Part shown: one piece after another, positions 905 through 15,466 of the stretch
How the letters are laid out: every line of letters begins with the position of its first letter
How positions within the stretch are numbered: position 1 is the stretch's first letter
DNA from: an uncultured Methanosarcinaceae archaeon
GTDB taxonomy: Archaea; Halobacteriota; Methanosarcinia; Methanosarcinales; Methanosarcinaceae
Length of the DNA: 15,568 nucleotides
Assembly: GCA_963833425.1 (NCBI GenBank)
Contig: CAWHXP010000019.1
Location: forward strand, 1 to 15,568
Direction of reading: 5' to 3'
Notes under the pieces: model-generated
The model's input: the letters and a program-made list of their open reading frames with translations, nothing else
Databases searched by the model: none
What the model was told of the DNA's origin: nothing
Translations under genes and position numbers: made by a program

Positions 905-2176
905 ATGGAAGGTGCATGGTATTATTACAAATATCGCAGGTTTATAAAATGGTTAGGTTTATATTTGGCACTTGCTGGTCCAGGTATAATTGTGATGGTC
1001 GCGGACAATGATGCAGGTGGTATCACGACCTATGCTGCAACAGGTGCCAAATTCGGCTTTAACTTAGTCTGGTTTTTAATACTACTTGGCCCAGTAGCAT
1101 ATGTTGTTCAGGAGATGAATGTGCGACTAGGAGCGGTCACCAAACGAGGACATGCAGAAGCTATATTCGATGCTTTTGGCTCGTTTTGGGGCTGGTTCTC
1201 GTTAATAGATTTGGGCATTTTGGATTTCCTTACGATGGTAACTGAGTTTATAGGAATGACCGCTGCTCTAAAGATATTTGGTGTACCGCCTATATTGACG
1301 ATAATAGCTGTCTCCATCTTGATGATCACCATATTCGTTCACGGGAGATACTGGACATGGGAAAAGATAGTACTCCTTTTCTGCTTACTCAATCTAATCT
1401 ATATTCCTGCGATTCTGCTTATTCACCCCAATTATAGTGATGTCATCAAAGGTTTGATTCCAGTTATTCCTATCAGCGGGTTCACAGGTGATTTTTTCTT
1501 CTTTTTCATGGCGAATATAGGGACTACGATAGCTCCATGGATGATATTCTTCCAGCAGAGCTCAGTAGTAGATAAGGGTATGACTGAGAAAGATATTCCC
1601 TTTGGGAAATTCGATACCGCAGTTGGTGCATTCTTCACAATAGTAGTTGCAATCGCGTGCGTAATTCTCACAGGCACATTGCTCTTCAAGCCCGGTGGAG
1701 TAGATATAAAAAGTGCTGCTCAAGCTGCAATTGCGATCATGGGCAGCTATCCACTCGTTGTAGTGGCCTTGCCATAGGACTCTTCGATGCAGGACTTCTT
1801 GGAGCCATATGCATATCATTGACAAGCTCATGGGCTATGGGCGAGGTTTTGGATGGGCTCATTCTATCGACAACAAGGTTTCAGAAGCCCCTATGTTCTA
1901 TTCCTTTTATTTCCTGAGCTTGATTTTCGCTGGCTTGGTTGTAATAACCCCAGGGGCTCCGTTGGTGCTGATAACTCTTTTCGTGCAAGTGATAACTGTT
2001 ATTCTTCTTCCTGAAACTCTGGTTTTTCTGCTACTTCTGCTCAACAATGAAGAGATGATGGGGAAATATAGAATACCTTAATGCAAAATATTTGGGGTTT
2101 TTTGATTGTATTTATTATAATTATTGTCTCGACTCTTTATGCTTTAAGCGTGATCTTTCAGGAGATGTTTAAATGA
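905..2176 (+). pseudogene. NRAMP-related divalent metal (probably Mg2+) transporter with three -1 frameshifts (pseudogene or sequencing errors)
   Basis: GPGIIVMVADNDAGGITTY (TM1), QEMNVRLG and GTTIAPWMIFFQQS (TM6). The reading continues across ORFs 905, 1657 and 1809 (AIGLFDAGLLGA, FGWAHSID) and finally NTLMQNIWG...QEMFK to TGA at 2174-2176. Shifts near 1769, 1848 and 2071. Confidence 0.85.
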
Positions 2177-2443
2177 ATGCGGATACCATAGAAAACGATC
2201 AGGAGACGAGAAATATGATAGACTAGGTTGATGACACATATGAGAAGGGAAGGATCAGCTATGTGGTAAGAAGATATAAAAAGCAGTAAACAATATCAAC
2301 AAGAATCCCAGTAAGCCACAATTGAAGACGACCCCTTTGGTCAGGGTTTTGTTCATCGCTCATAGACAGTATTATTTAATATGGAAAGATTAATATTAAG
2401 TTATAAATTCTACACTATAGTGAGGTAAGCGGGAGACAGGTGC

Positions 2444-3719
2444 ATGAAAGACAATCTTACTAACAACCAACCTGAAAGCATCTTTTTTTTGAGTGAAGTG
2501 ATGAAGACAGATGTCCTCCTCAATGGCCAAAAAATAGGAAAGCTCTTAGATCTCATCGTACTTGAAAAGGATAAGGTGGCAGAGGTCACACATATTGTAG
2601 TAAGTCGATCTTTTGGTTATTCTTCATTGATGGTACCATGGAATAATGTAAGTTCATTCAGTGAAAAGGAGATAACTATAGATATTGACGAGGTAGAAAA
2701 ATTCACCTGCAAAATACCTGAAGGATTTATCCTTCTGAAAGATTTCATTTTGGATAAGAAGATTTTAGATCTAGAGGATACTGAGGTTGAGATCGTCTAC
2801 GATATCAAAATGGTTATGTCAAAAAACAGACTTTATATAACTGACGTGGATCCATTTGAAGATGCTCGCTTCCGAAAGCTAGGTCTTGATAAATTTGCTA
2901 ATTTTATTCACATGGAACGTGACAAAAGCAAGGATGTACTTATCCCATGGTCCTATGTTCAAGCTCTGCCCTCTAATATTGGAAGTTTTACTGGCGATGT
3001 TAAGTTAAAGATATTAAAGGAGAAACTGAACGATCTTCCACCTGTGGATATTGTGGAAATTTTAGAGGAATTGGATCACGAGGCAGAGACTGACCGTTAT
3101 CAATCAGCTCGAAGAAGAGCATGCGTCTGATACCTTAGAGGAAATTAATCCGAATATGCAAAGGGAGATCATCACCTCTCTGACTAAGGAAAAAGTTGCA
3201 GACTTGATTGATATGATGACGTCTGGCCAGGCAGCTGACGTCCTGTCGGTTCTGACTTTGGAGGATCAAGAAGCGATAATGGAACTGATGGATGAGGAAA
3301 ATCTCAATAAGATAAAATCTATCCTTGAGAAGCGACAGGATACGATATTCAACCTCATAACTGAGAGATATCTAAAAGCTCAGCCAGATGAAACAGTAGA
3401 GACTGTGGAGGATGCGTACCCCAAAAGAGCAAAGGGCAAAGATGAAATAATGTACATCCACGTAACAGATAAGGATAATGAGCTATTGGGTGTGATTGAT
3501 GTGAAGGAGCTTCTTCAGGCAGATAGTCAGGCACTTTTGAAGGACATCATGAATAAGAATGTCATAACCTTGGATAAAGAGAGTAGTATTGGAGAAGCCA
3601 CGAAGATGTTCTCTAGATATGGCTTCAGATCTCTTCCAGTGACAGATAATGATAATAAAATAGTTGGAGTTGTCAGTCAACGAGATATCGTAAAACTAAC
3701 ACTTCACTTCTCGGAGTGA
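2444..3719 (+). pseudogene. Soluble MgtE-like protein (PRC-barrel-like N terminus, MgtE N-terminal repeats, CBS pair), split by one +1 frameshift near 3082
   Basis: LPPVDIVEILEELDHE joins QRLTVINQLEEEHASDTLEEINPNMQREII if one G is removed. AADVLSVL repeat. CBS motifs LLGVIDVKELL and SLPVTDNDNKIVGVVS. No transmembrane domain. Confidence 0.8.
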
Positions 3720-3886
3720 AAAATGATTTTATTATAAATTACCTCCAATTAATCACTGAAGACTTACAGCAATTGATACAAATTATTTAAATTCTATTTA
3801 AGAATTAATTATTTTTCGAAAATTAATATGACCGTTTTACCATCCCTAAGTGATTTATATTACCTGTAGATTTGGGTGATTGAATT

Positions 3887-4558
3887 ATGGTTCAGAAACA
3901 ATATTTAAGGCAGTTGGATTTGCTCAAAGAATCAGTAATTTCATTTGGAAAGATGGTTGAACTTATTTTCTGCGATTCGATAGATGCATTTATAGATCTG
4001 GATATCAAAGTCGCTAAAAGAGTGCTTGTCCTTGCTGCAAAAATGAATAAATATGAGGAAGGAATTGAGGTTTCTATTTCGGATCTGCTTGCGCTTCAAC
4101 AGCCTATAGCTAGCGATCTCCGGCTAGTCACATCTGCTCTTCAAGATTTCAGCAGAGCTAAAGAGGATTAGTGAACTATCAATCAATATTGCTCAGATTC
4201 CCGGGAAAATCGAAGGTGAGCATGTAAGATATCTCATGGATATTAAAAAAATGTCAGACATTGCAACATATATGCTTGAGAATTCCCTGAAAGCTTTTGA
4301 GAATCAAGACACTGAGCTCGCAAAAGCTACGGCAGCTCGAGACGTGATATAGACCAGCTCTTTTACGTAATCTGGGTTGAATTAATAAAAATGATGGCAA
4401 AAGATGCGAGCATCATTTCCAGAACTACATATTTACTTTTTTTGATTCGGTACATTGAAAAAATTGCTGATCACTGCTGTAATATCTGTGAGAGTGTAGT
4501 TTATCTTACTACGGCTGAGCGGATCAAATTAAACGGAATATATATTGAGACTATCTGA
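3887..4558 (+). pseudogene. phoU: Phosphate signalling complex protein PhoU with two frameshifts (~4139 and ~4343)
   Basis: LLALQQPIASDLRLV, then in shifted frames KISAELKRISELSINIA and IRYIEKIADHCCNICESVVY, which are the two PhoU repeats. Stop TGA at 4556-4558. GGGTGA RBS upstream. Confidence 0.88.
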
Positions 4559-4623
4559 TGCATTGTTAGTTATTCTTGGAATTATCGTGATAGCTCTTGC
4601 TAAAAATTGAATAAAGACTTAAG

Positions 4624-5626
4624 TTGCACTTTCCATTTTATAAGCGCCATGATGAAGATTTCCAAGCCTGGCAAAAACCATTAAATGATGTTTTATCCAA
4701 CTTTGGTGCTAAGCTATTCAATCCACTCCTGGCAAATCTTCTACCTCAAATAAAAAGATTGATTCTCCTGCCTTCTAGCGGTCTATTTCTGTTGCCCTTA
4801 CATACAATTCCTCTAGCCGATGGCCAGCTTCTCTGTGAACGTTATTGCATAAGCTACGCTCCTTCCATTCAACTCTCAGAGAAATGCGAAATAAGGCTGG
4901 GACAATTGAAGAAAACGGTCTCTATGTGGTTATCAATCCTGGGGAGATCCTTCTCTAGTCTTTTCAGGATTTGAAGGCCAAGCTATATCCAATTTTTTCA
5001 GTTTTTCCCAGATAAATATTGGTAAATTTGGTACCAGAGCAACAATCTTAGATAAAGTACCTTGAAATACATGTCTCCATTTCTCTTGTCATGGCAGCTA
5101 TCACTGGAACGATCCAACCAGTCTATATTGTACTTATTTGGAGGGCGAACTCTGAGCTTAGAAGATCTTCAAAGTGATGCAGTTGATTTGTCCACATCTA
5201 GGTTGGTTACTCTCTCTGTCTGTGAAACAGGGATCACAGATATTGTAAAAGGCAGTGCTGATGAGTTTGTTGGCCTGCCTGCAGGTTTTATTCGCGGGTG
5301 TTCCCTGCGTGGTCAGCAGTCTCTGGTCAGTTCCAGATATTTCCACAGCCATATTGATGGAGCGGTTCTATTCCAACCATATTGCTAAGGGAATGGATGT
5401 TCCATTATCATTACAGGACGCTCAGCTCTGGGTCCGAGATCTTACTTCTAATCAGGTGAGAGATTATGTGGAAAAATGCTACAATTCAGGTAAATGGGAA
5501 GACAAGAGCAAGGAATTCATAGAACAATGCGGGGAACGCTACATCAAAATGGCAGAAGAATCTCCAGAAAATGAGCCTTTCCAGCATCCATATTATTGGG
5601 CAGCGTTTGCAGTTAATGGAGCATAA
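4624..5626 (+). pseudogene. CHAT (caspase-like) domain protein, C-terminal fragment with ~4 frameshifts and an in-frame TGA (5063-5065)
   Basis: CHAT motifs LILLPSSGLFLLPLH, ISYAPS, HFSCHG (5078-5095, in a frame not shown in the ORF track), LVTLSVCETG, VVSSLWSVPD, LMERFY and HPYYWAAF. No N-terminal region or credible start. Confidence 0.85.
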
Positions 5627-5644
5627 AATTAGGGATTGATTTGA

Positions 5645-5935
5645 TCGTATGCGTATGATGGAGCATTATCCTGTTCTTGTAGGTTATCCATCTCATCAAT
5701 TTTTCCTACAGCTTTTTCTCTTCAGCTAGGTTCAGGGGCATAGGTTGATGAAGAGTCTTGAGCAGATCGAAATAATAGGTGTCCACTGCTGATCGGATCA
5801 GAACTCCATAGACTTTGGCATGTGATACAGCACCTTGATAGCTAAGGCAGTTAGAGCTTTCCCTGTATAAGAGTTATGGAAGCTGCTAGAAACCCCCAAG
5901 CTTCAAGGGTTCCCAGCAGAATAAAAGTATCCGCT
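5645..5935 (-). pseudogene. 3' remnant of a hypothetical (probably membrane) protein
   Basis: Manual minus-strand translation gives a hydrophobic stretch (TFILLGTLEAWGFLAASITLI), then SYQGAVSHAKVYGVLIRSAVDTYYFDLLKTLHQPMPLNLAEEKKL*EKLMRWI. It is protein-like but interrupted by stops and a frameshift. Family not identified. Confidence 0.4.
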
Positions 5936-6361
5936 GATCAAGCTTTTCCAACTCTCCTAATATGTGTCCGTCTAATACAAGAGTTTAAAAGCCTGCATTT
6001 TCAGCTATTGTTATTATATTAGCTATGATATCATCTAAAACCGGGATTATGACTCCTGAAATTTTAAACCCGAACACCGTATTGTCAGATATTGTTCCAG
6101 CTAAGGATGCAGTTGCTGTAGAATTAGTATTGAAACAAGTTGAAGCTCTTTCAAATACGTGGACAGGTTAATAAATATTGAAATTTTAGTCAATCATGAT
6201 TTATATTAGGTAAACTCAGTTGTTGGAAGTGAGATCTAGAAGCACAGATTACTTTGAATTTTTATTAATAAGTCTGCTAACTAGGATTAAATCTCCATAA
6301 GAATTAATAGAGCAAAATATGAAATATAAGTACATTGAACATTAAGTTCATATCACTTACA

Positions 6362-6439
6362 ATGCTTGCAGAAGAAGCAGTCCATGAAGCTATTAACGAC
6401 TATCTCGGGAAAAAAGGACTTGAGCCCTGGATAGAATGA
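6362..6439 (+). pseudogene. iscU: C-terminal remnant of Fe-S scaffold IscU/NifU
   Basis: Translates MLAEEAVHEAINDYLGKKGLEPWIE*, matching the helix that follows the HCS motif at the end of IscU/NifU-N proteins. All Cys-containing upstream sequence is absent. Confidence 0.65.
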
Positions 6440-6872
6440 TTTATTATAACTATTCAGTATACCAGAAATGGCATTTTTGTGTACATCTGTTGAAAGTTGG
6501 ATGAGAAAGATTACAAAAAGAAAAATTGGAATTAACTCAAACGTGATAATCCAAATTACAGATCTAAATTAAATTAAAAATAAGATAATAAAGTTGATGG
6601 AATAATTGTGAAAAAGACTATTTTTGAAGAAAGATCTACAGAAAGTCGATTCTAGGATCTGGATATCTTTCCAAGACCTTTCACGAATAGCCTAATAAAA
6701 ATGCTTTGCTTTGGTCAAAATTTATTTTGATATATAGCTTATTATGGACCAGCCATGTGTTTTTTAGACAAACCTATGGATGCAAAAATGTTTACTTAAT
6801 TAGCATCTTCGAGTGCTATAGGTCAATCTTGGACATATTCTTTTATAATTTAAGTAATGAGGATAATTCAGT

Positions 6873-8114
6873 ATGGCACCAATGGATATGGTAATATTTT
6901 TCCTGGAGATCTCTGTGATGCTTTCCATAGCACTTTTGTGCGGTCATGTAATGAGGAGTCTTCGTTTTCCTGCGGTCCTGGGCGAGCTTTTTGGTGGCAT
7001 CATTCTCGGTCCGACAGTCTTTGGATGGTTTAGTCCAGGTACTTATCGATGGTTATTTCCAGCATCTGGTACTGTTTTTGAGGGCAGAGATGCACTAATC
7101 CAAATTTGCATTCTTTTCTTTTTATTCATTGCAGGTCTGCAAATGAACCTGAAGCTCGTTAGGAACAGCGGCATTCACATAGCATGGGCTAGCTTAATGG
7201 GCATATTGCTACCGTTTACATTTGGCTTCGGTATGGTCGTCATGTTTCCGAATATGTGGGAGGGGTATTTTAAGGGCGAAACATTTTTTTTTCGCGATGT
7301 TCATGGGAACAGCGTTGTCGATATCAGCTCTCCCGGTTATTGCTAGAACTCTCATGGACCTAGACTTGCTGAATACAGATATGGGGATGATAATTATTGG
7401 GGCAGCAACAGTAAATGATCTGGTAGGATGGTCTTTATTTGCTTTTATTCTGAGCAATTTCGCGCCTAATAGTATCATTAATATTTCTCCTTACATGATT
7501 TTCATTCTAGTGTTTTTGCTTTTTATTTTCATGCTCACTATAGGTCGGGTTCTGGCTCAGATAGCTCTTACCTGGCTCAAGTCACATATGCCCTGGCCAG
7601 GAGCCTTCCTTGGAATAACGACAATCCTTATATTGTTGACTTCAGCTTGTGCTGAAGCTATCGGGATACATGCTGTTTTTGGCGCTTTTTTGGTAGGTCT
7701 TGCATTCTCCCAGAACTTAAAGAAACTGGATGAAGCACATGAGATAGTCTATCAGTTCGTCATGTATTTTTTTGCCCCACTTTACTTTGTTTCAATTGGG
7801 CTACAGACGAATTTCGTAGCATCATTTGACCTAAACCTGGTGCTTGCAGTTCTTTTAGTTGCATGTATAGGTAAGGTGCTCGGTGTGATGCTTGGCCTAC
7901 GTGTGAGCAAGATTCCATGGAGGCAGTCTGCAGTAATAGGTTTTGCTTTGAACTCAAGAGGAGCAATGGAGATGATATTAGCTACTGTTGCCAGGAATGT
8001 GGCCTTATCAATGACCGCTTGTTTGTGGCTTTTGTTATCATGACACTGATTACGTCTATTCTAAGCGGCCTGATAATGAATAAATTAAATACTTTTGATC
8101 TTTCTATGGTTTAA
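6873..8114 (+). pseudogene. Cation:proton antiporter (CPA2, Na+/H+ exchanger family) with two frameshifts (~7290 in a T-run and ~7997)
   Basis: PAVLGELFGGIILGPTVFG, LFIAGLQM, ALSISALPVIARTL, AATVNDLVGW, GIHAVFGAFLVG, FAPLYFVSIGL and LNSRGAME, ending GLINDRLFVAFVIMTLITS to TAA at 8114. Confidence 0.85.
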
Positions 8115-9514: not shown

Positions 9515-10825
9515 ATGACAGACAAATCAAATGATGCTGAAACAAAAATTGAACTTGATGCTCATGCTCAGAGAAAAAACAGAAGCATACTAAAGAAGTA
9601 TGATGAAAATGGATCTAGATTTTGTTCTGGCTCCTCCCATTCAGGGACTGAAGTTCCGACAGATGTGGTTATAGTCCGTTATGGAGAGCTTGCTCTTAAA
9701 AGTTCTGGAATTAGAAACTGGTATGAGAAAATCCTTATAAAAAATATTGCAGCAATGTTAAATTCTAGAGAAATTCCATATTCTCGAATTCGTCGGGAAT
9801 GGGGCAGGATATTCATTGAGACTATTGATTCTCATGCTGCCGAAGCAATAGCTAATGTTTTTGGGGTTGTCTCAACTTCCGCTGCGTTGGCAACAGAACC
9901 CAGCCTTAAGGATGCAGCTAGTGTATGTGCAACTCTTGCTCAAAATTTTATTTGTGAGGATGAGTTGTTTGCAATCAGAGCAAGGAAAAGTGGAAACCAT
10001 CCTTTTTCCTCAGCAGATATTGGTAAAGCCTGTGGAGACGCGGTCTGGAATTTCCTAGAGAAAGAAGGTAAACATCCTGGAGTTGACCTGACGTTTCCTG
10101 ATAAGGAAATCTTCGTCGAAATGCGACAAAACTTAGCGTATATTTATCTAAAAACATTTAAAGGGGTTGGAGGGCTTCCACTTGGTACACAAGGCAGCAT
10201 GGTAGTTCTAATATCAGGAGGACTTGATTCTCCGGTTGCTGCCTGGCTTATGATGAAACGTGGAGTTATGATCATCCCGGTCTATTGTAATAATACTCCT
10301 TATGCCCAGAACGAAGCAAAAGAACGTGCTTTTGATTGCATTCGCCAACTTCATAAGTGGGCTCCAGGGCATCAGTTTACAACTTATGAGATTCCTCATG
10401 GTCCTAATCTGCAATCCTTTATCGCAAAATGCAATCGGAAAAATACCTGTCTTCTCTGTAAACGCATGATGTACAGAGAAGCCTATGAAATTATGAAAAA
10501 GGAAAATGCCAGTGGGATTATCACCGGCTCTTCTCTCGGACAGGTGGCATCTCAAACTGCTGCCAACATGTATGCTGAGGTTTATCAACTTCCGATTCCC
10601 GTCTACCACCCTTTGATTGGCTTTGACAAAACAGAAATTATGGATATGGCCCGCAAAATTGGAACCTACGATATCTCCAATCAATCAGCAGGAAGCTGTA
10701 CTGCCGTTCCGGAACGTCCAGAAATAGGGGCAAATTACGATCTGATTGCACTCGAAGAAAAAAAGCTGGATATCGAAACTATGGTCTCCAGTGCTTTAAA
10801 AGCCACAAAGGTCCTTAAACTCTAA
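9515..10825 (+). CDS. thiI: tRNA 4-thiouridine(8) synthase ThiI (methanogen type, no rhodanese domain)
   Basis: VRYGELALKS, THUMP domain, GVGGLPLGTQG, PP-loop SGGLDSPVA, CLLCKRMM (CxxC), GQVASQT, PLIGFDK, and a third Cys in GSCTAVP. Confidence 0.96.
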   Translation: MTDKSNDAETKIELDAHAQRKNRSILKKYDENGSRFCSGSSHSGTEVPTDVVIVRYGELALKSSGIRNWYEKILIKNIAAMLNSREIPYSRIRREWGRIFIETIDSHAAEAIANVFGVVSTSAALATEPSLKDAASVCATLAQNFICEDELFAIRARKSGNHPFSSADIGKACGDAVWNFLEKEGKHPGVDLTFPDKEIFVEMRQNLAYIYLKTFKGVGGLPLGTQGSMVVLISGGLDSPVAAWLMMKRGVMIIPVYCNNTPYAQNEAKERAFDCIRQLHKWAPGHQFTTYEIPHGPNLQSFIAKCNRKNTCLLCKRMMYREAYEIMKKENASGIITGSSLGQVASQTAANMYAEVYQLPIPVYHPLIGFDKTEIMDMARKIGTYDISNQSAGSCTAVPERPEIGANYDLIALEEKKLDIETMVSSALKATKVLKL

Positions 10826-11686
10826 TAAGGATAAAACCATTTTTCAAATTTTAATTTATAATTCACAGTAACATATTAATTATTTTAATCTATTTGAGAA
10901 TTACTTATATTTTAGGAAAATTTCTATTACCACAACAAGCTGCGTGATTCATCATCTCTAAAGAAACATTGAAGCTGTTTTTTATCGGATATACTGAGGT
11001 TAGTGGGATGAAAAAAGAAGTGTGAATGTCTAAACCATGAAACCTATTTACTATTTTTGTGAATTTAAATAACTAATTCATTGGGTGATGAAATTGTCCT
11101 AAAGGCCAATTTAACATTCGTGATCAAAGTCACATTTGAGCCTTATATAGTAATTTATATAATATTTTTAAGACAGTTTTAAAAAACAAAATTAAGACAA
11201 ACTTCTTACTTAAATAACTACATAGTCAATCTTAAAAAGTTATACAGTACATATATTCTTTTATTTGAGACTTTTGTTCTCGAAGAATAATATCTTTGTT
11301 TCTAAGCTACTGTCATGTTGAGATAATAGAGGGTTTTCTTGTGTACAGCTACGGAGGTGGTATTAAATGATTGTATATTCATATTTAAATTAGTTGATAT
11401 TTTGAGAAACCTATAATTTAGCAACTATCTTAATTCCAATTTATTCTGAATAATTATAAATTATTTTGCAGGTTTCTTCTCTTTCGGAATTCAGGTACGC
11501 ATTAACCTTATACGAGAGTATTTTATCTAAATTGTGGAATCAAATCTAGTTTTAAGACAGAGCCTTTATGTGACTGTGTCATCGGGCTCAAATATATCCC
11601 TCAGATCACTTTTAGATTGCCTTTCAGCTACCAAGAGAAAGTATTGCTTAGGATCATGCGAGATGGTTTGAGGCACTTTTTATCGT

Positions 11687-11745
11687 AAAAAATGGGTTTT
11701 AATATTAACGAGGAATATAGTGTGTTGTCTGTTCACTATTGTGAA
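11687..11745 (+). promoter_or_regulatory. Putative BRE/TATA promoter with downstream TTCACTATTGTGAA palindrome (copy 2)
   Basis: AAAAAATGGG-TTTTAATA (TATA 11697-11704), ATAGTGTG, then an imperfect palindrome at 11732-11745. Colinear with 12645-12701. Confidence 0.6.
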
Positions 11746-11753
11746 TTGATTTT

Positions 11754-11795
11754 TTCGGGGTGGTGGTTGGTTACGCAATGAACTGTAGATCCATT
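11754..11795 (+). pseudogene. tRNA-Cys-derived 5' half (D arm and anticodon arm, anticodon position GTA) lacking the T arm and 3' acceptor strand
   Basis: TACGCAATGAACTGTAGATCCATT (11772-11795) versus TACGCAATGGACTGCAGATCCATT (12730-12753): 22/24 identical. Upstream GGG-TG-GTGG..GG is also retained. Similarity stops after the anticodon stem. Confidence 0.75.
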
Positions 11796-11841
11796 ATATA
11801 TAGAGCAGATAGAAATGTGAATTTAAAGCAGGTAAGAACAC

Positions 11842-12336
11842 ATGAATCTAAAGGGTTAAAGTATAAAGGGAGCGATATTTGAAAGAACGAAGCATATTGT
11901 CCGAAACATTGATGAGCATGCAGTTGGAATAGCCTCTGAAGTTCTTGATGACGAACGTACAATTGAAATAGCCTGGGAAGCTCTTAATTTATTTGAACTG
12001 TACATTATTCTGCGTATAGTAGAACAAATGTTTCTGGTAGCTGAGTATATGCTTCTGGAAGTTAGAACTAGTCCTATTCACCTGATTGAACCGAACTATG
12101 GTCAAGGTATGGAGTTAATAGGTGATTTCTTTGAAAAAGGAGAATCTCAGCTACGGCAAATATTAAGAGCATATAGCATTTCAGAAACAGAAATCAATGT
12201 GCTGAAATCTTTAATGACTAGTTCTATGAATGAGATATCGTCATATAATATTTTATTCATGGAACCCGGTAGAACATCAGCTTATCCTTCGGTTTCGCAT
12301 TTAATCGAAGCCTTGCCCTACTCCTATTGTTGTTGA
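11842..12336 (+). pseudogene. Hypothetical protein (~164 codons) with in-frame TAA at codon 6; ORF 12028-12336 is its 3' part
   Basis: The frame of ORF 12028 is open back to 11860. In-frame ATG at 11842 is preceded by AGGTAAG. Reads MNLKG*SIKGAIFERTKHIVRNIDEHAVGIASEVLDDERTIEIAWEALNLFELYIILRIVEQMFLV... No family recognised. Confidence 0.55.
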
Positions 12337-12643
12337 TTGAATTCATTTCAACATTACAAACTTCATTTTTTTGTTGTTATATTAAAATTACTATCAACGC
12401 AATAATTTCCAAGAATAAGACATATTTTTGGTGCCGAATATTTTCAAGCTGACCTTACCTTTGTTTTCTCTAATTCCCCCTTTTTTTGATAGGTGTGGCA
12501 AAAAAATTTAATGAATCTCCTTTGTTTATCGAGTTCTTTTACTTGGATTAATGTCCTCATACTAAAAATGACATAAGCAGCATTTATTCATTTGAACTAG
12601 CTCAATGCAGAAAGCATCTTTATTTGAGTTTCCTTTTCCCTAT

Positions 12644-12701
12644 GAAATAGGTTTAAGTATTTGAATACTGTAATAGTATGCTATAAGGTCACAATTGTGA
12701 C
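12644..12701 (+). promoter_or_regulatory. BRE/TATA promoter of the tRNA-Cys-pscS-metY unit with perfect 14-bp palindrome GTCACAATTGTGAC (copy 3)
   Basis: GAAATAGG-TTTAAGTA (TATA 12652-12659). Palindrome at 12688-12701. The tRNA starts at 12711. Confidence 0.7.
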
Positions 12702-12710
12702 TAAATTATT

Positions 12711-12782
12711 GCAAGGGTTGTGGAAAGGCTACGCAATGGACTGCAGATCCATTTTACCCCGGTTCGATTCCGGGTCTTAGCT
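12711..12782 (+). tRNA. tRNA-Cys(GCA) with atypical acceptor stem, no intron, no encoded CCA
   Basis: Cloverleaf: acceptor GCAAGGG/TCTTAGC, D stem GTG/CGC with GG in the loop, anticodon arm ATGGA-CTGCAGA-TCCAT, T arm CCCGG-TTCGATT-CCGGG, discriminator U73, G37. Confidence 0.92.
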
Positions 12783-12795
12783 TAGAGGTAATCTC

Positions 12796-14184
12796 ATGGA
12801 TATAAGAACACAAAAGACTTTTGAGGCTCTTTTTGCCCTTGAAGATATTAGGGAGGTCCTCAGACAGTCACTTCCAAATATCACAAGTCTGGAAGAAGAA
12901 CACTCCATTAAAGAAGGTGTAAATAAAGTCAGGAATATCCTGGATGAAATAGAGAACGGTACTGGAACTCCACAAGTTAGGAAGATAGCAGATAATATTG
13001 ATATCCGATCCAGAGAAGAAGCATATATAAATATACAGCCAATCCAGGCAGCTGGAAGACTTACTCCTGAAGCACGAAAAGCGCTTATAGCGTATGGAGA
13101 TGGCTATTCCACCTGTGATGCCTGCCGCAAACCTTTCAGGCTGGACAAAATCAAAACTCCGCCTATCGCAACGTTTCACGAACAACTCGCTAGCTTCCTT
13201 AATATGGATGTTGCACGCGTAGTGCCAGGCGCAAGGCGTGGTTTCCAGGCAGTGACTTCCACTCTTGTTAATAAAGGTGATTCAGTGATAGTCTCATCTC
13301 TGGCTCACTATACAGAGTTTCTGGCTGTTGAAGAGGCAGAAGGAACAGTAAAGGAAGTGCCTGTGAACGAGCACAATATTGTTACTGCAGATGCAATTGC
13401 TGAGAAGATTGAAGCGGTTAAGCAGGAAACAGGCAAACTACCTGTGCTGATAATGATCGATCACTTTGATTATCAGTATGCCAATGAACATGATGTAAAA
13501 GGCATATCAAAAGTTGCACATCAGTATAATATTCCTTTCCTATATAATGGCGCATACACTGTTGGGGTCATGCCAGTGGATGGAAAGGAAATTGGCGCAG
13601 ATTTTGTCGTAGGATCAGGCCACAAAAGCATGGCATCACCTGCACCGTCTGGAGTGCTGGCAACAACCGACGAATGGGCTCCTAAGATATTCCGCACTAC
13701 ACAGATGGTTGGTGATGTCACAAAACGCAAGTTTGGCATCAAAGAAGTGGAGATGCTTGGCTGTACATTAATGGGTTCGACATTGATAGGTATGATGGCT
13801 TCTTTCCCTACTGTCAAGAATAGAGTACATAATTGGAAAGAAGAAGTAAAAAAGTCAAACTATCTGATTGATGGTCTACTTGCTGTAGAAGGGGGTAGAG
13901 TTCTCTCAGAATACCCACGCAAACATACCCTTTCAAAAGTTGACACAAGTAGAAACTTCGATCTCATCGCACAGAGCCATAAACGCAAAGGTTTCTTCCT
14001 TTCAGATGAGCTCTCAAGCAAGGGCATTATTGGGGAATTTGCAGGAGCTACACGTATATGGAAATTAAACACTTACGGGCTTTCCTGGGAGAAAGTTCGC
14101 TATGTAGTAGATACTTTCCAGGGCATTGCTGAGAAATACAAAATTCAAGTAAACAGGGAGAATGATTCCAATGGTAGCAAATAA
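12796..14184 (+). CDS. pscS: O-phospho-L-seryl-tRNA:Cys-tRNA synthase (SepCysS) with ~60-aa N-terminal extension
   Basis: [22 protein letters not shown] (CxxC), [22 protein letters not shown] lysine in [14 protein letters not shown] and [14 protein letters not shown] at 12785-12789. Confidence 0.96.
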
Positions 14185-15466
14185 CTATAAACTAGGAACT
14201 ATTGCCCTTCACGCTGGACAGATTCCAGATCCAGCTACAGGAGCACGGGCAGTACCGATCTATCAAACTACGTCTTATGTATTCCGGGACACGGATCATG
14301 CAGCTAATCTTTTCGCCCTCCACGAGCTTGGTAATATCTACACTCGCATAATGAACCCAACTACTGATGTTTTCGAACAGCGTATAGCTGCCATTGAGGG
14401 TGGTACAGGAGCACTTGGAGTTGCATCCGGTTCAGCAGCAATAACCTATGCTCTATTAGCGATTACCAGGCTTGGGGATGAAATTGTCTCTGGGAACAAC
14501 CTGTATGGTGGAACCTATGAACTTTTTAATTATACTCTCCCTAAGTTGGGAAGAAAAGTTATATTTGTGGATTCGACTGATCTGAAAGCATATCAACATG
14601 CTATTACTGAAAAAACGCGGGCAATTTATATTGAATCAATAGGTAATCCAAAATTGGATATTCCTGATTTTGAGGCGCTCGCAAATATTGCCCATAAAGC
14701 TGGAATCCCACTTGTTGTAGACAACACGAGTGCTGTAGGGCTTGTTCGGCCAATTGATCATGGAGCAGATATCGTTGTGCATTCGGCAACCAAATTTATC
14801 GGTGGGCATGGAAATTCAATTGGTGGATCCATAGTCGATTCCGGGAAATTCTCCTGGAACAATGGCAAATTCCCGGAATTGACAGATCCTGATCCAAGTT
14901 ATCACGGTCTGAAATACTGGGATACATTTTCAGAATTCCCGGATCTTGGTAATGTAGCATTTATTTTCAAAATAAGGCTGCAACTTCTAAGGGATACAGG
15001 TGCTGCTCTTTCGCCTTTCAATGCTTTTCTATTACTTCAGGGACTTGAAACACTGCATCTGAGGATACAGCGACACTCAGAAAACGCTCTCGTTGTAGCA
15101 AAATACCTTTCAGGCCATCCAAAAGTCTCATGGGTTAATTATCCAGGTTTACCGAATCATCCAAGTCACGAGCTTGCATCTAGATACCTCAGAGGTGGTT
15201 ATGGCGCTTTGATAGGTTTTGGCGTGAAGGGAGGTATAGAAGCAGGTAAAACTTTTATCAATAATCTGAAGCTGTTTTCACATGTTGCTAACATAGGAGA
15301 CTCAAAAAGTCTTGTCATTCATCCCGCAACTACCACACACCAGCAGCTAACCCCAACTGAACAAGAGGCAACAGGCGTTAAGCCAGATTACATACGACTT
15401 TCCATTGGTATTGAGGATGTCGAAGATATAATCTCAGATCTTGAACAAGCTCTTGAAAAAGTGTAA
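14171..15466 (+). CDS. metY: O-acetylhomoserine/O-acetylserine sulfhydrylase (MetY/Met17 family)
   Basis: [44 protein letters not shown] lysine in [32 protein letters not shown] and [11 protein letters not shown] 14171 is preferred over 14162 because GGGAG (14156-14160) lies 10 nt upstream. Confidence 0.93.

Follow-up and report, generated by a model that had tools for sequence, protein, structure and literature searches.

Why should a tRNA gene that lies only a few bases upstream of the gene for the enzyme that uses it as a substrate have a damaged acceptor stem? The question is raised by a stretch of 15,568 nucleotides (nt) of contig CAWHXP010000019.1, from an uncultured Methanosarcinaceae archaeon, which we refer to as the window and whose coordinates are used throughout; the loci compared with it are designated L001, L019 and so on. 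ARAGORN calls a single tRNA in the window, a tRNA-Cys with anticodon GCA at 12711-12782, directly upstream of an open reading frame (ORF) for SepCysS. A first-pass annotation had given this feature as 12711-12795 and offered three explanations for its stem: a dedicated metabolic tRNA for the SepRS/SepCysS route, a tRNA-like cis element controlling access to the adjacent ribosome-binding site, or a decaying extra copy. The tRNA-Cys is real and its last base is the discriminator U73 at 12782; the remaining bases, 12783-12795, are spacer. On the evidence set out below, we consider it probable that the gene is a fusion of two tRNA-Cys paralogues, produced by a deletion of ~560 base pairs (bp), and that the hybrid is probably still recognised as a tRNA while being a poorer substrate.

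Base-by-base reading confirms the pairing given in the first-pass annotation. The acceptor stem consists of G1-C72, C2-G71, A3:A70, A4-U69, G5.U68, G6-C67 and G7.U66, that is, four Watson-Crick pairs, two G.U pairs and one A:A mismatch; the D stem contains U11.G24, and the anticodon and T stems are perfect. With G34, C35, A36 and G37 together with U73, the gene holds the complete archaeal tRNA-Cys identity set of anticodon GCA, discriminator U73 and G37, as two studies give it (PMC8762117, PMC9976931). Rfam family RF00005 scores 12711-12782 at 40.5 bits (E=1e-05), above the gathering score of 29, and the sole pair that it marks as non-canonical with a negative score is 3:70. This score is the second lowest among the 20 SepCysS-adjacent copies of Methanosarcina, 18 of the other 19 of which lie between 50.0 and 64.4 bits, with L012 at 34.1 bits. 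An uninterrupted acceptor helix of seven base pairs is found in 44 of the 49 SepCysS-adjacent tRNA-Cys genes in our sample and is absent from the window tRNA, whose acceptor stem is unusually weak for this family.

The sample was obtained by a search restricted to one genome per species, which gave 80 loci encoding long-form SepCysS, or 81 sources with the window. The SepCysS identities of these loci are 85-96% in Methanosarcina, ~70-74% in Methanoregula and other Methanomicrobiales, ~73-76% in Methanolobus and 67-68% in Methanothrix. By ARAGORN, 48 of the 80 loci (49 of the 81 sources) have a tRNA-Cys no more than 30 nt from the SepCysS ATG, among them 19 of the 20 Methanosarcina-type loci; in 13 the nearest tRNA-Cys lies 45-335 nt upstream, in six Methanolobus loci it lies ~2.9-3.0 kb upstream, and in 13 none was found in the sequence scanned, which for L022 includes only 124 nt upstream. 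The paired positions of the 49 adjacent copies covary: pair 3-70 is C-G in 29 and U-A in 18, pair 4-69 A-U in 29, G-C in 11 and G.U in seven, pair 5-68 A-U in 25 and G-C in 16, and pair 7-66 A-U in 29 and G-C in 16, a pattern that points to selection for helix retention in these tRNAs. The five copies with any acceptor mismatch have it at different pairs, except for the near-identical L002 and L003. The first-pass annotation had suggested that orthologous loci be checked for the same mismatches; A3:A70 occurs in none of the 19 other Methanosarcina loci.

The source of the odd stem is suggested by the existence of two kinds of tRNA-Cys in the Methanosarcina loci. In the adjacent type the 5' acceptor strand GCUGAGA is paired with UCUCAGC or UCUUAGC (U3-A70), and in the upstream, canonical type GCCAGGG is paired with CUCUGGC (C3-G70); the strands of the window tRNA are GCAAGGG and UCUUAGC. 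The adjacent tRNA is of the GCUGAG[AG] / UCU[CU]AGC type or the UUUCAGC type in 17 of the 19 other Methanosarcina loci, the exceptions being L012 and L009 with GCUGAAA. In L019 and L001, the two closest relatives of the window, a decayed upstream tRNA-Cys and the SepCysS-adjacent copy lie ~560 nt apart. By blastn, window 10800-12803 is colinear with L019 1423-3450 (86.9%) and L001 1426-3449 (86.6%) through the upstream tRNA-like copy, which in both relatives begins 10 nt after a GGTCACAATTGTGACT palindrome, and window 12722-12830 matches the adjacent tRNA together with the start of SepCysS (95.4% in L019 and 94.5% in L001). The ~560 nt between the copies of the relatives have no counterpart in the window. 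In a five-way alignment of the window with the two copies from each relative, sites at which both upstream copies differ from both adjacent copies were taken as informative. The window carries the upstream base at 36 of 36 informative sites up to 12719 (tRNA position 9) and the adjacent base at 19 of 20 from 12753 (tRNA position 43) onward. The first 20 nt of the tRNA find their best match in the upstream pseudo-copy of L019 (19/20), and the adjacent copies of L019, L001 and L017, identical at 49 of the remaining 52 positions, are among the best matches of that part. The gene thus has the make-up of a fusion: its 5' flank and 5' part are those of one paralogue, its 3' part and 3' flank those of the other, and the spacer of the relatives is missing.

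Such an origin would explain the stem pair by pair (Table 1), since acceptor strands that come from different genes have never co-evolved and do not match. The upstream copy, parent of the 5' strand, is a pseudogene in both L019 and L001; in L001 it falls short of the Rfam gathering score with 25.0 bits, and in L019 it goes unreported at E<=10. Of the deviant bases, U11 (12721) agrees with the distal copy of L019 only. Gapped identity over the SepCysS coding sequence (CDS) is 0.927 and 0.934 between the window and L019 and L001, respectively, against 0.978 between L019 and L001, ungapped values being distorted by indels in L019, and this makes the window the outgroup. As it nevertheless shares the GCAA[GA]GG 5' strand and the promoter with the upstream copy of L019 and L001, the two-copy state is ancestral, and the window lineage would have lost the spacer; the GCUGAG-type adjacent copy common to the other Methanosarcina loci points in the same direction. 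The 3' part of the hybrid (49/52 against the adjacent copy of L019) is no more diverged than the neighbouring CDS (92.7-93.4% identity) and so gives no sign of decay since the fusion, which does not in itself prove function.

We therefore propose the following history, reconstructed from these alignments. In this Methanosarcina lineage, the long-form SepCysS gene follows a tRNA-Cys whose end lies 12-13 nt before the ATG, and one or more further copies of tRNA-Cys, every one with a putative TATA box and a TCACAATTGTGA palindrome of its own, are present farther upstream. In the ancestor of the window, the deletion would have joined the promoter, palindrome and first 9-20 nt of an upstream copy to the rest of the adjacent copy, the Shine-Dalgarno sequence (SD) and the SepCysS ORF, exchanging the long upstream region of the adjacent copy for the promoter of the upstream copy. 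None of the three explanations in the first-pass annotation accounts for the mismatches. The third comes closest, in that the promoter and the first 9-20 nt derive from a decayed paralogue, and is incomplete, the rest of the gene being that of a normal adjacent tRNA. The damaged stem does not look like purpose-built design; it has the appearance of a by-product of deletion between paralogues, rather than of a regulatory or metabolic specialisation. In most Methanosarcina loci, ~250-430 nt upstream of the adjacent copy are conserved and contain another palindrome. With the exchange, the palindrome-to-ATG distance of the window (95 nt) has come to equal that of the compact Methanomicrobiales form (94-96 nt in most). 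The 250-430 nt region between palindrome and adjacent tRNA (L019 3490-3915, with equivalents in L001, L002, L003, L007, L008, L014, L015 and L018) has conserved blocks such as TCGTAGATGAACAGA and TTGTGTACATCTGCGGAATAG and no obvious ORF, and is deleted in the window.

The surrounding arrays have a history of their own. Two further hybrids, in L012 (1212-1283) and L016 (822-892), join a 5' acceptor strand of canonical type to a 3' strand of the adjacent type, that of L012 having two mismatches; they are independent cases of the same kind, so that such exchanges recur. Upstream copies, for example L017 639-709 and L002 3449-3520, are trailed by traces of the SD, start codon and initial codons of SepCysS (...ATGGATATA in L017), which indicates that the arrays grew by duplication of the tRNA together with the 5' end of SepCysS; in many non-adjacent copies the SD is mutated to AAAG, and a TTTT run and an inverted repeat are newly present. 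The window itself retains a second, truncated tRNA-Cys remnant behind a palindrome (Table 1), in which the anticodon is mutated to GTA and the T arm is missing; 11769-11799 matches the adjacent tRNA of L019 at 87%, and neither ARAGORN nor Rfam calls a tRNA at 11757-11803. L015 has the same GCA-to-GTA change in a copy of full length (3430-3500), annotated by ARAGORN as tRNA-Tyr.

Is the hybrid still a tRNA? Folded in silico as naked RNA, it has a minimum free energy (MFE) of -17.4 kcal/mol (z=+0.59) in a structure that is not a cloverleaf, while the adjacent tRNAs of L019 and L001 fold as cloverleaves at -25.1 and -32.8 kcal/mol. The predicted probabilities of its seven acceptor pairs are 0.90, 0.90, 0.00, 0.38, 0.42, 0.42 and 0.17, against ~1 in L019 and L001. 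Direct evaluation of cloverleaf energies was unreliable, as non-canonical pairs were scored oddly, and pair probabilities and MFE were used instead. As its D, anticodon and T arms and GCA, G37 and U73 are intact, it probably continues to be recognised as a tRNA. Compared with the parental form, it should be a poorer substrate on account of the weak acceptor helix.

The predicted opening of most of the acceptor helix and the low Rfam score would suit an inert relic, which is no longer a working tRNA and survives by its position between a promoter and the SepCysS ORF, decoding being left to a tRNA-Cys elsewhere. Dead copies abound at the locus, as the remnant at 11757-11803 and the pseudo-copies of L019 and L001 attest, and spare copies can exist in one genome: the complete Methanosarcina genome NZ_CP136241.1 holds two long-form SepCysS loci, L009 and L011, with a single adjacent tRNA-Cys at one of them and four at the other. 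Against a relic stand the retention of all identity elements and tertiary-interaction bases, the 3' part without excess substitutions, and U69, which restores a pair with A4. A further hint that the adjacent copy is the working tRNA in this clade comes from the loci whose adjacent copy has G37, as in the window: five of six have no other tRNA-Cys nearby, against two of 13 with A37 (Fisher p=0.0095, uncorrected for phylogeny), L006 being left out of the comparison for want of upstream sequence. We regard a relic as unlikely, if the most serious competitor of a fusion gene that still yields a tRNA.

Position 37 also bears on the suggestion that the adjacent isoacceptor is reserved for the SepRS/SepCysS route and that the odd stem is its mark. 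Adjacency is conserved across two orders, the adjacent copies of Methanosarcina form an acceptor type of their own (U3-A70, against C3-G70 in the canonical upstream copies), and SepRS and CysRS of M. mazei are reported, in PMC8762117 and PMC9976931, to prefer different isoacceptors. The second of these describes m1G37 as a SepRS determinant. Yet 14 of the 20 Methanosarcina adjacent copies (L002, L003, L005-L011, L013-L016 and L018) have A37 in place of G37, in anticodon loops of CUGCAAA or UUGCAAC, which argues against an adjacent tRNA dedicated to SepRS in those species; in Methanomicrobiales the adjacent copy is canonical, and the stem of the window is unique, its mismatches not being conserved, and is accounted for by the fusion. 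A dedicated tRNA is accordingly quite an improbable reason for the odd stem.

The place of the tRNA in the SepCysS transcript is a separate matter, on which the first-pass annotation fares better. As it had noted, GAGGT begins two bases after U73 and 13 bases separate U73 from the ATG at 12796, a spacer that has no room for a terminator or a separate promoter and is identical in L019, L001, L011 and L013. After correction of six ARAGORN tRNA ends, 43 of the 49 adjacent copies, from both Methanosarcina and Methanomicrobiales, have a discriminator-to-ATG distance of 10-15 nt, and a run of four T residues occurs in the 15 nt after the tRNA in none of the 49, whereas 26 of 69 non-adjacent copies have one. 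Exact matches between the spacer and the complement of the anti-SD reach at most 4-6 nt in 36 of the 49 and 3 nt in 13. These data support the view that the tRNA forms the 5' leader of the SepCysS mRNA; the layout of tRNA-Cys, 10-15 nt and ATG is ancient and common, and the SepCysS transcript of the window very probably has the tRNA-Cys as its 5' part. Transcription would begin at a palindrome-controlled promoter ~25-30 nt upstream of the tRNA and read through SepCysS and the metY-like gene behind it; RNase P and RNase Z would excise the tRNA-shaped part and leave a SepCysS mRNA with a 13-nt leader starting just before the SD. A U directly after the discriminator favours RNase Z, and this base is U in 43 of the 49 adjacent and 57 of the 69 non-adjacent copies. 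An internal promoter in the A/T-rich variable loop was judged unlikely, as the loop is not TATA-like in the Methanomicrobiales copies.

This layout invites the further idea that the weak stem is adaptive, such that folding, binding of a synthetase or of SepCysS, or cleavage by RNase P/Z gates the ribosome-binding site. The SD lies 2 nt after U73, the 10-15 nt spacing is conserved and the acceptor stem is predicted to breathe, and 5'-untranslated-region processing that frees ribosome-binding sites is documented in a methanogen (PMC5499594). Purpose-built regulation of this kind is nonetheless very improbable as the reason for the stem: A3:A70 is confined to the window among the Methanosarcina loci, 44 of the 49 adjacent tRNAs keep perfect covarying helices, the fusion accounts for every deviant base, and the SD is not convincingly sequestered in the predicted fold of tRNA and leader (MFE frequency 0.0035, z=+0.78).

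Several points weigh against a simple fusion that leaves a weakened tRNA. The crossover interval is poor in informative sites, none within 12720-12752 being informative in both relatives; the narrow placement at 12722-12730 depends on L019, and the conservative interval is 12720-12752. U69 (12778) is not of the adjacent type of L019 and L001, where C69 would have produced a second mismatch, A4:C69; it is present in seven of the 19 other Methanosarcina loci, and may be a compensatory change, an inherited variant or the sign of a more complex exchange. If the genome has no other tRNA-Cys, the hybrid must be fully functional, and to call it a poorer substrate would be an overstatement. Co-transcription, the start site and cleavage by RNase P/Z we infer from spacing, absent T-runs and conservation. 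Finally, a mis-joining of the copies by the assembler, or base-calling errors, which the split genes in the upstream 8 kb and the up to ~31 identical bases that the parental copies may share around the junction might suggest, is hardly credible, given paralogue-specific matches at 36/36 and 19/20 sites that random errors could not produce, intact ThiI, SepCysS and metY-like genes beside the site, and comparable hybrids in the two independent assemblies of L012 and L016.

The promoter that the fusion would have brought to SepCysS appears to belong to a wider set. The palindrome that marks it ends 10 nt before the tRNA, and the window contains two such sites (12688-12701 and 11733-11744), each matched on both strands, giving four matches against 0.2 expected. 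Over the loci, TCAC-N4-GTGA, mostly as TTCACAAT[TC]GTGAA, occurs 164 times in 653 kb against 8.9 expected from base composition, and ends 4-18 nt upstream of 85 of the 118 tRNA-Cys genes. It also lies within 120 nt of the SepCysS ATG in 16 of the 18 loci whose upstream sequence extends over at least 140 nt and shows no tRNA within 335 nt of SepCysS. In the 85 palindrome-plus-tRNA-Cys promoters, a GGTTTAAATATT block is conserved 37-28 nt upstream of the palindrome, and the window has this block at 12649-12659. From the archaeal promoter consensus we take it to be a TATA box, in which case the palindrome sits just after the start site, which in the window would be near 12683. An earlier assignment of the TATA box to CTATAAGG (12681-12688) was dropped, because the alignment of the 85 promoters puts the element of B recognition element (BRE)/TATA type at 12649-12659. 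A scan for sigma-70 promoters and terminators returned no signal on the + strand near the tRNA; it does not cover archaeal signals and is not meaningful for an archaeon.

The palindrome also precedes genes for cysteine-desulfurase-like, NadA and ThiF proteins (Table 1), which suggests a regulon of sulfur mobilisation and iron-sulfur enzymes, and it precedes ATP-grasp genes. Divergent from it runs, in some loci, an ORF of 102-114 residues with a weak match to Pfam HTH_3 and conserved cysteines; homologues of this Cys-rich helix-turn-helix (HTH) protein occur in 12 of the 80 loci and none is encoded in the window. A search of NCBIfam gave no family for it, and in the Atlas it resembles the HTH domain of archaeal regulators with a fused ThiN, here standing alone. 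Palindrome and HTH protein are a candidate operator-regulator pair. A DNA operator is favoured over an RNA hairpin formed by the palindrome in the leader of the pre-tRNA, as the palindrome also lies upstream of protein genes and beside the divergent HTH gene. Literature searches on the palindrome string, on SepCysS regulation in Methanosarcina and on the wider topic gave no description of such an operator among the matches listed. We put forward, as a tentative idea that has somewhat less than even odds in our judgement, that the promoter in the window belongs to an undescribed cysteine/sulfur regulon of Methanosarcinales and Methanomicrobiales, in which tRNA-Cys genes are co-regulated with SepCysS, the HTH protein of ~105 residues is the candidate regulator, and the adjacent tRNA doubles as a processing signal for a 10-15 nt leader. 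If so, the fusion in the window put SepCysS under the direct control of the palindrome operator. To our knowledge, no case has been described in archaea in which the transcription of a particular tRNA is regulated jointly with that of the enzyme that makes an amino acid on it; such regulation would be directly testable in the genetically tractable Methanosarcina.

Taken together, the finding adds one more case to two known kinds, the tRNA-Cys/SepCysS operon and the recombinant tRNA gene. In the E. coli thrU-tyrU-glyT-thrT-tufB operon, a tRNA-mRNA co-transcript is released by tRNA processing, and hybrid genes arise in the E. coli tyrT tandem repeats by unequal recombination or deletion between tandem tRNA copies. 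As in the tyrT recombinants, deletion between direct repeats in the window would have left one chimeric tRNA gene with loss of the spacer; unlike them, the parents had diverged with compensatory acceptor changes, which gives mismatched strands, and the promoter of the downstream protein gene was also swapped. The E. coli thrS operator and the Gram-positive T-box are tRNA-mimic operators or leaders, and they share with the window a tRNA-related RNA beside the ribosome-binding site of a gene of aminoacyl-tRNA metabolism; they are conserved and specialised, whereas the deviation in the window is lineage-specific and seemingly accidental. With the tufB operon, with mitochondrial tRNA punctuation and with the t-elements of plant mitochondria, the last two as described in PMC3790967 and PMC1920247, the window has in common a tRNA or tRNA-like body that abuts an ORF, cleavage by RNase P/Z that would set the 5' end of the mRNA, and co-expression of a tRNA with a protein of the same pathway. 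It differs from these in being an archaeal chromosomal case, in that the tRNA is the enzyme's own substrate, and in that processing is deduced from the layout.

The tRNA-Cys/SepCysS neighbourhood as such is already known. The work of Mukai et al. 2017 (mBio, PMC5424206) associates clade VII SepCysS genes with tRNA-Cys; with its follow-up (PMC8762117) it describes SepCysS/SepCysSN loci that resemble ours in the extension of ~70 residues, the tRNA-Cys directly upstream and a metY-like gene downstream, and its Fig. S2 labels metY, metX and thiF at such loci. The SepCysS orthologue, the adjacent tRNA-Cys and the sulfur genes (metY-like, ThiI) of the window match those of clade VII loci, of which it would be a putative member. 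The fixed 10-15 nt spacing, the tandem arrays with decayed copies, the hybrids and the palindrome go beyond the passages of that paper on these loci and the text of its Fig. S2, a figure that may draw finer detail. An oddity that seemed designed thus appears to be a trace of the birth and death of genes in a tandem array of tRNAs, and it cautions against inferring function from structural deviations in a single genome. The hybrid is at the same time a natural experiment on the degree of damage to the acceptor stem that is tolerated by RNase P/Z, SepRS/CysRS and SepCysS, and on the dependence of SepCysS expression on the tRNA. Of more value is the pattern at the level of the family, with its 10-15 nt spacing in two methanogen orders, its palindrome on tRNA-Cys genes and its candidate regulator.

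Table 1. Features of the window and of compared loci (locus designation before the colon; minus strand marked (-)).
Feature	Coordinates	Strand	Basis
Hybrid tRNA-Cys(GCA) gene, including discriminator U73	12711..12782	+	ARAGORN, Rfam, base-by-base reading
5' segment, apparently from the upstream (distal), already decayed paralogue: A3, A4, G5, G7, U9, U11	12711..12721	+	alignment
Crossover interval, most likely within shared GGAAAGGCT at 12722-12730	12722..12752	+	alignment; blastn match to proximal copy starts at 12722
3' segment, apparently from the SepCysS-adjacent tRNA-Cys: T arm, 3' acceptor strand UCUUAGC, U73	12753..12782	+	19/20 informative sites
Pair 3-70: upstream parent A-U; adjacent parent U-A; window hybrid A:A			
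Pair 5-68: upstream parent G-C; adjacent parent A-U; window hybrid G.U			
Pair 7-66: upstream parent G:A; adjacent parent A-U; window hybrid G.U			
Pair 11-24: upstream parent U.G (L019 upstream copy only); adjacent parent C-G; window hybrid U.G			
13-nt spacer UAGAGGUAAUCUC with SD-like GAGGU at 12785-12789	12783..12795	+	reading and locus comparison
Perfect 14-nt palindrome GTCACAATTGTGAC (core TCACAATTGTGA, 12689-12700), putative operator	12688..12701	.	site count
BRE/TATA-like element AGGTTTAAGTA, putative promoter of the tRNA	12649..12659	+	conserved block of 85 promoters
Palindrome TCACTATTGTGA (11733-11744), then truncated tRNA-Cys remnant (~11757-11803)	11733..11803	+	blastn
SepCysS, long form, N-terminal extension of ~70 residues (SepCysSN type of Mukai 2017)	12796..14184	+	profile and structure-database matches
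O-acetylhomoserine sulfhydrylase, metY-like	14162..15466	+	TIGR01326, 660 bits
Split Nramp	905-1777/1809-2081		ORFs and profile matches
Split MgtE-like	2444-3130/3156-3719		ORFs and profile matches
Split CHAT-domain protein	4624-5626		ORFs and profile matches
Split CPA2 antiporter	6873-7346/7222-8043		ORFs and profile matches
Palindrome-preceded genes: NadA (quinolinate synthase), class-V aminotransferase/cysteine-desulfurase-like, ThiF	L051:1177-2145, L058:2865-3758 and 1493-2680(-), L059:6203-7132(-), L056:2-1051(-), L070:216-1499, L048:3469-3768(-)		
Cys-rich HTH protein genes	L043:3420-3740(-), L049:3423-3731(-), L053:3428-3748(-), L064:3418-3723(-), L054:3364-3690(-), L029:1398-1739(-), L076:3319-3660(-), L048:1428-1745(-)		

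The protein genes beside the tRNA are well defined. The ORF behind it is identified as SepCysS by NF006810 (634.5 bits) and TIGR02539 (414.7 bits, cutoff 365), and M. jannaschii SepCysS (3wkr_A) matches residues 71-447 in a PDB sequence search (E=1.4e-91). The N-terminal extension is conserved, with 78 of the 80 related loci aligning with the window SepCysS from residue 1. The N-terminal 75 residues, when compared with the sequences in PDB, gave chance matches only; AlphaFold models the extension as a two-helix hairpin with a mean pLDDT of 79.8, and the top two of 350,542 PDB chains for this model are SepCysE (5x6b_F and 3wkr_D), at a non-significant E=1.2 and TMq of 0.55-0.58. The model is consistent with the SepCysSN label without proving it. 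The metY-like gene, of which the first 23 nt overlap the end of SepCysS, is probably in the same operon; a ThiI gene lies ~2 kb upstream, and all three protein genes are intact.

Farther upstream, frame changes or stops break up four genes within 905-8043, each into two or three ORFs, and these are either real pseudogenes or the result of indel errors; the genes from 9515 onward are intact. An ORF of 102 residues at 12028-12336 has a weak, partial match to the methyltransferase corrinoid proteins of TIGR02370, in their N-terminal part (E=3.4e-06, profile positions 22-80 of 197), and is probably a gene fragment.

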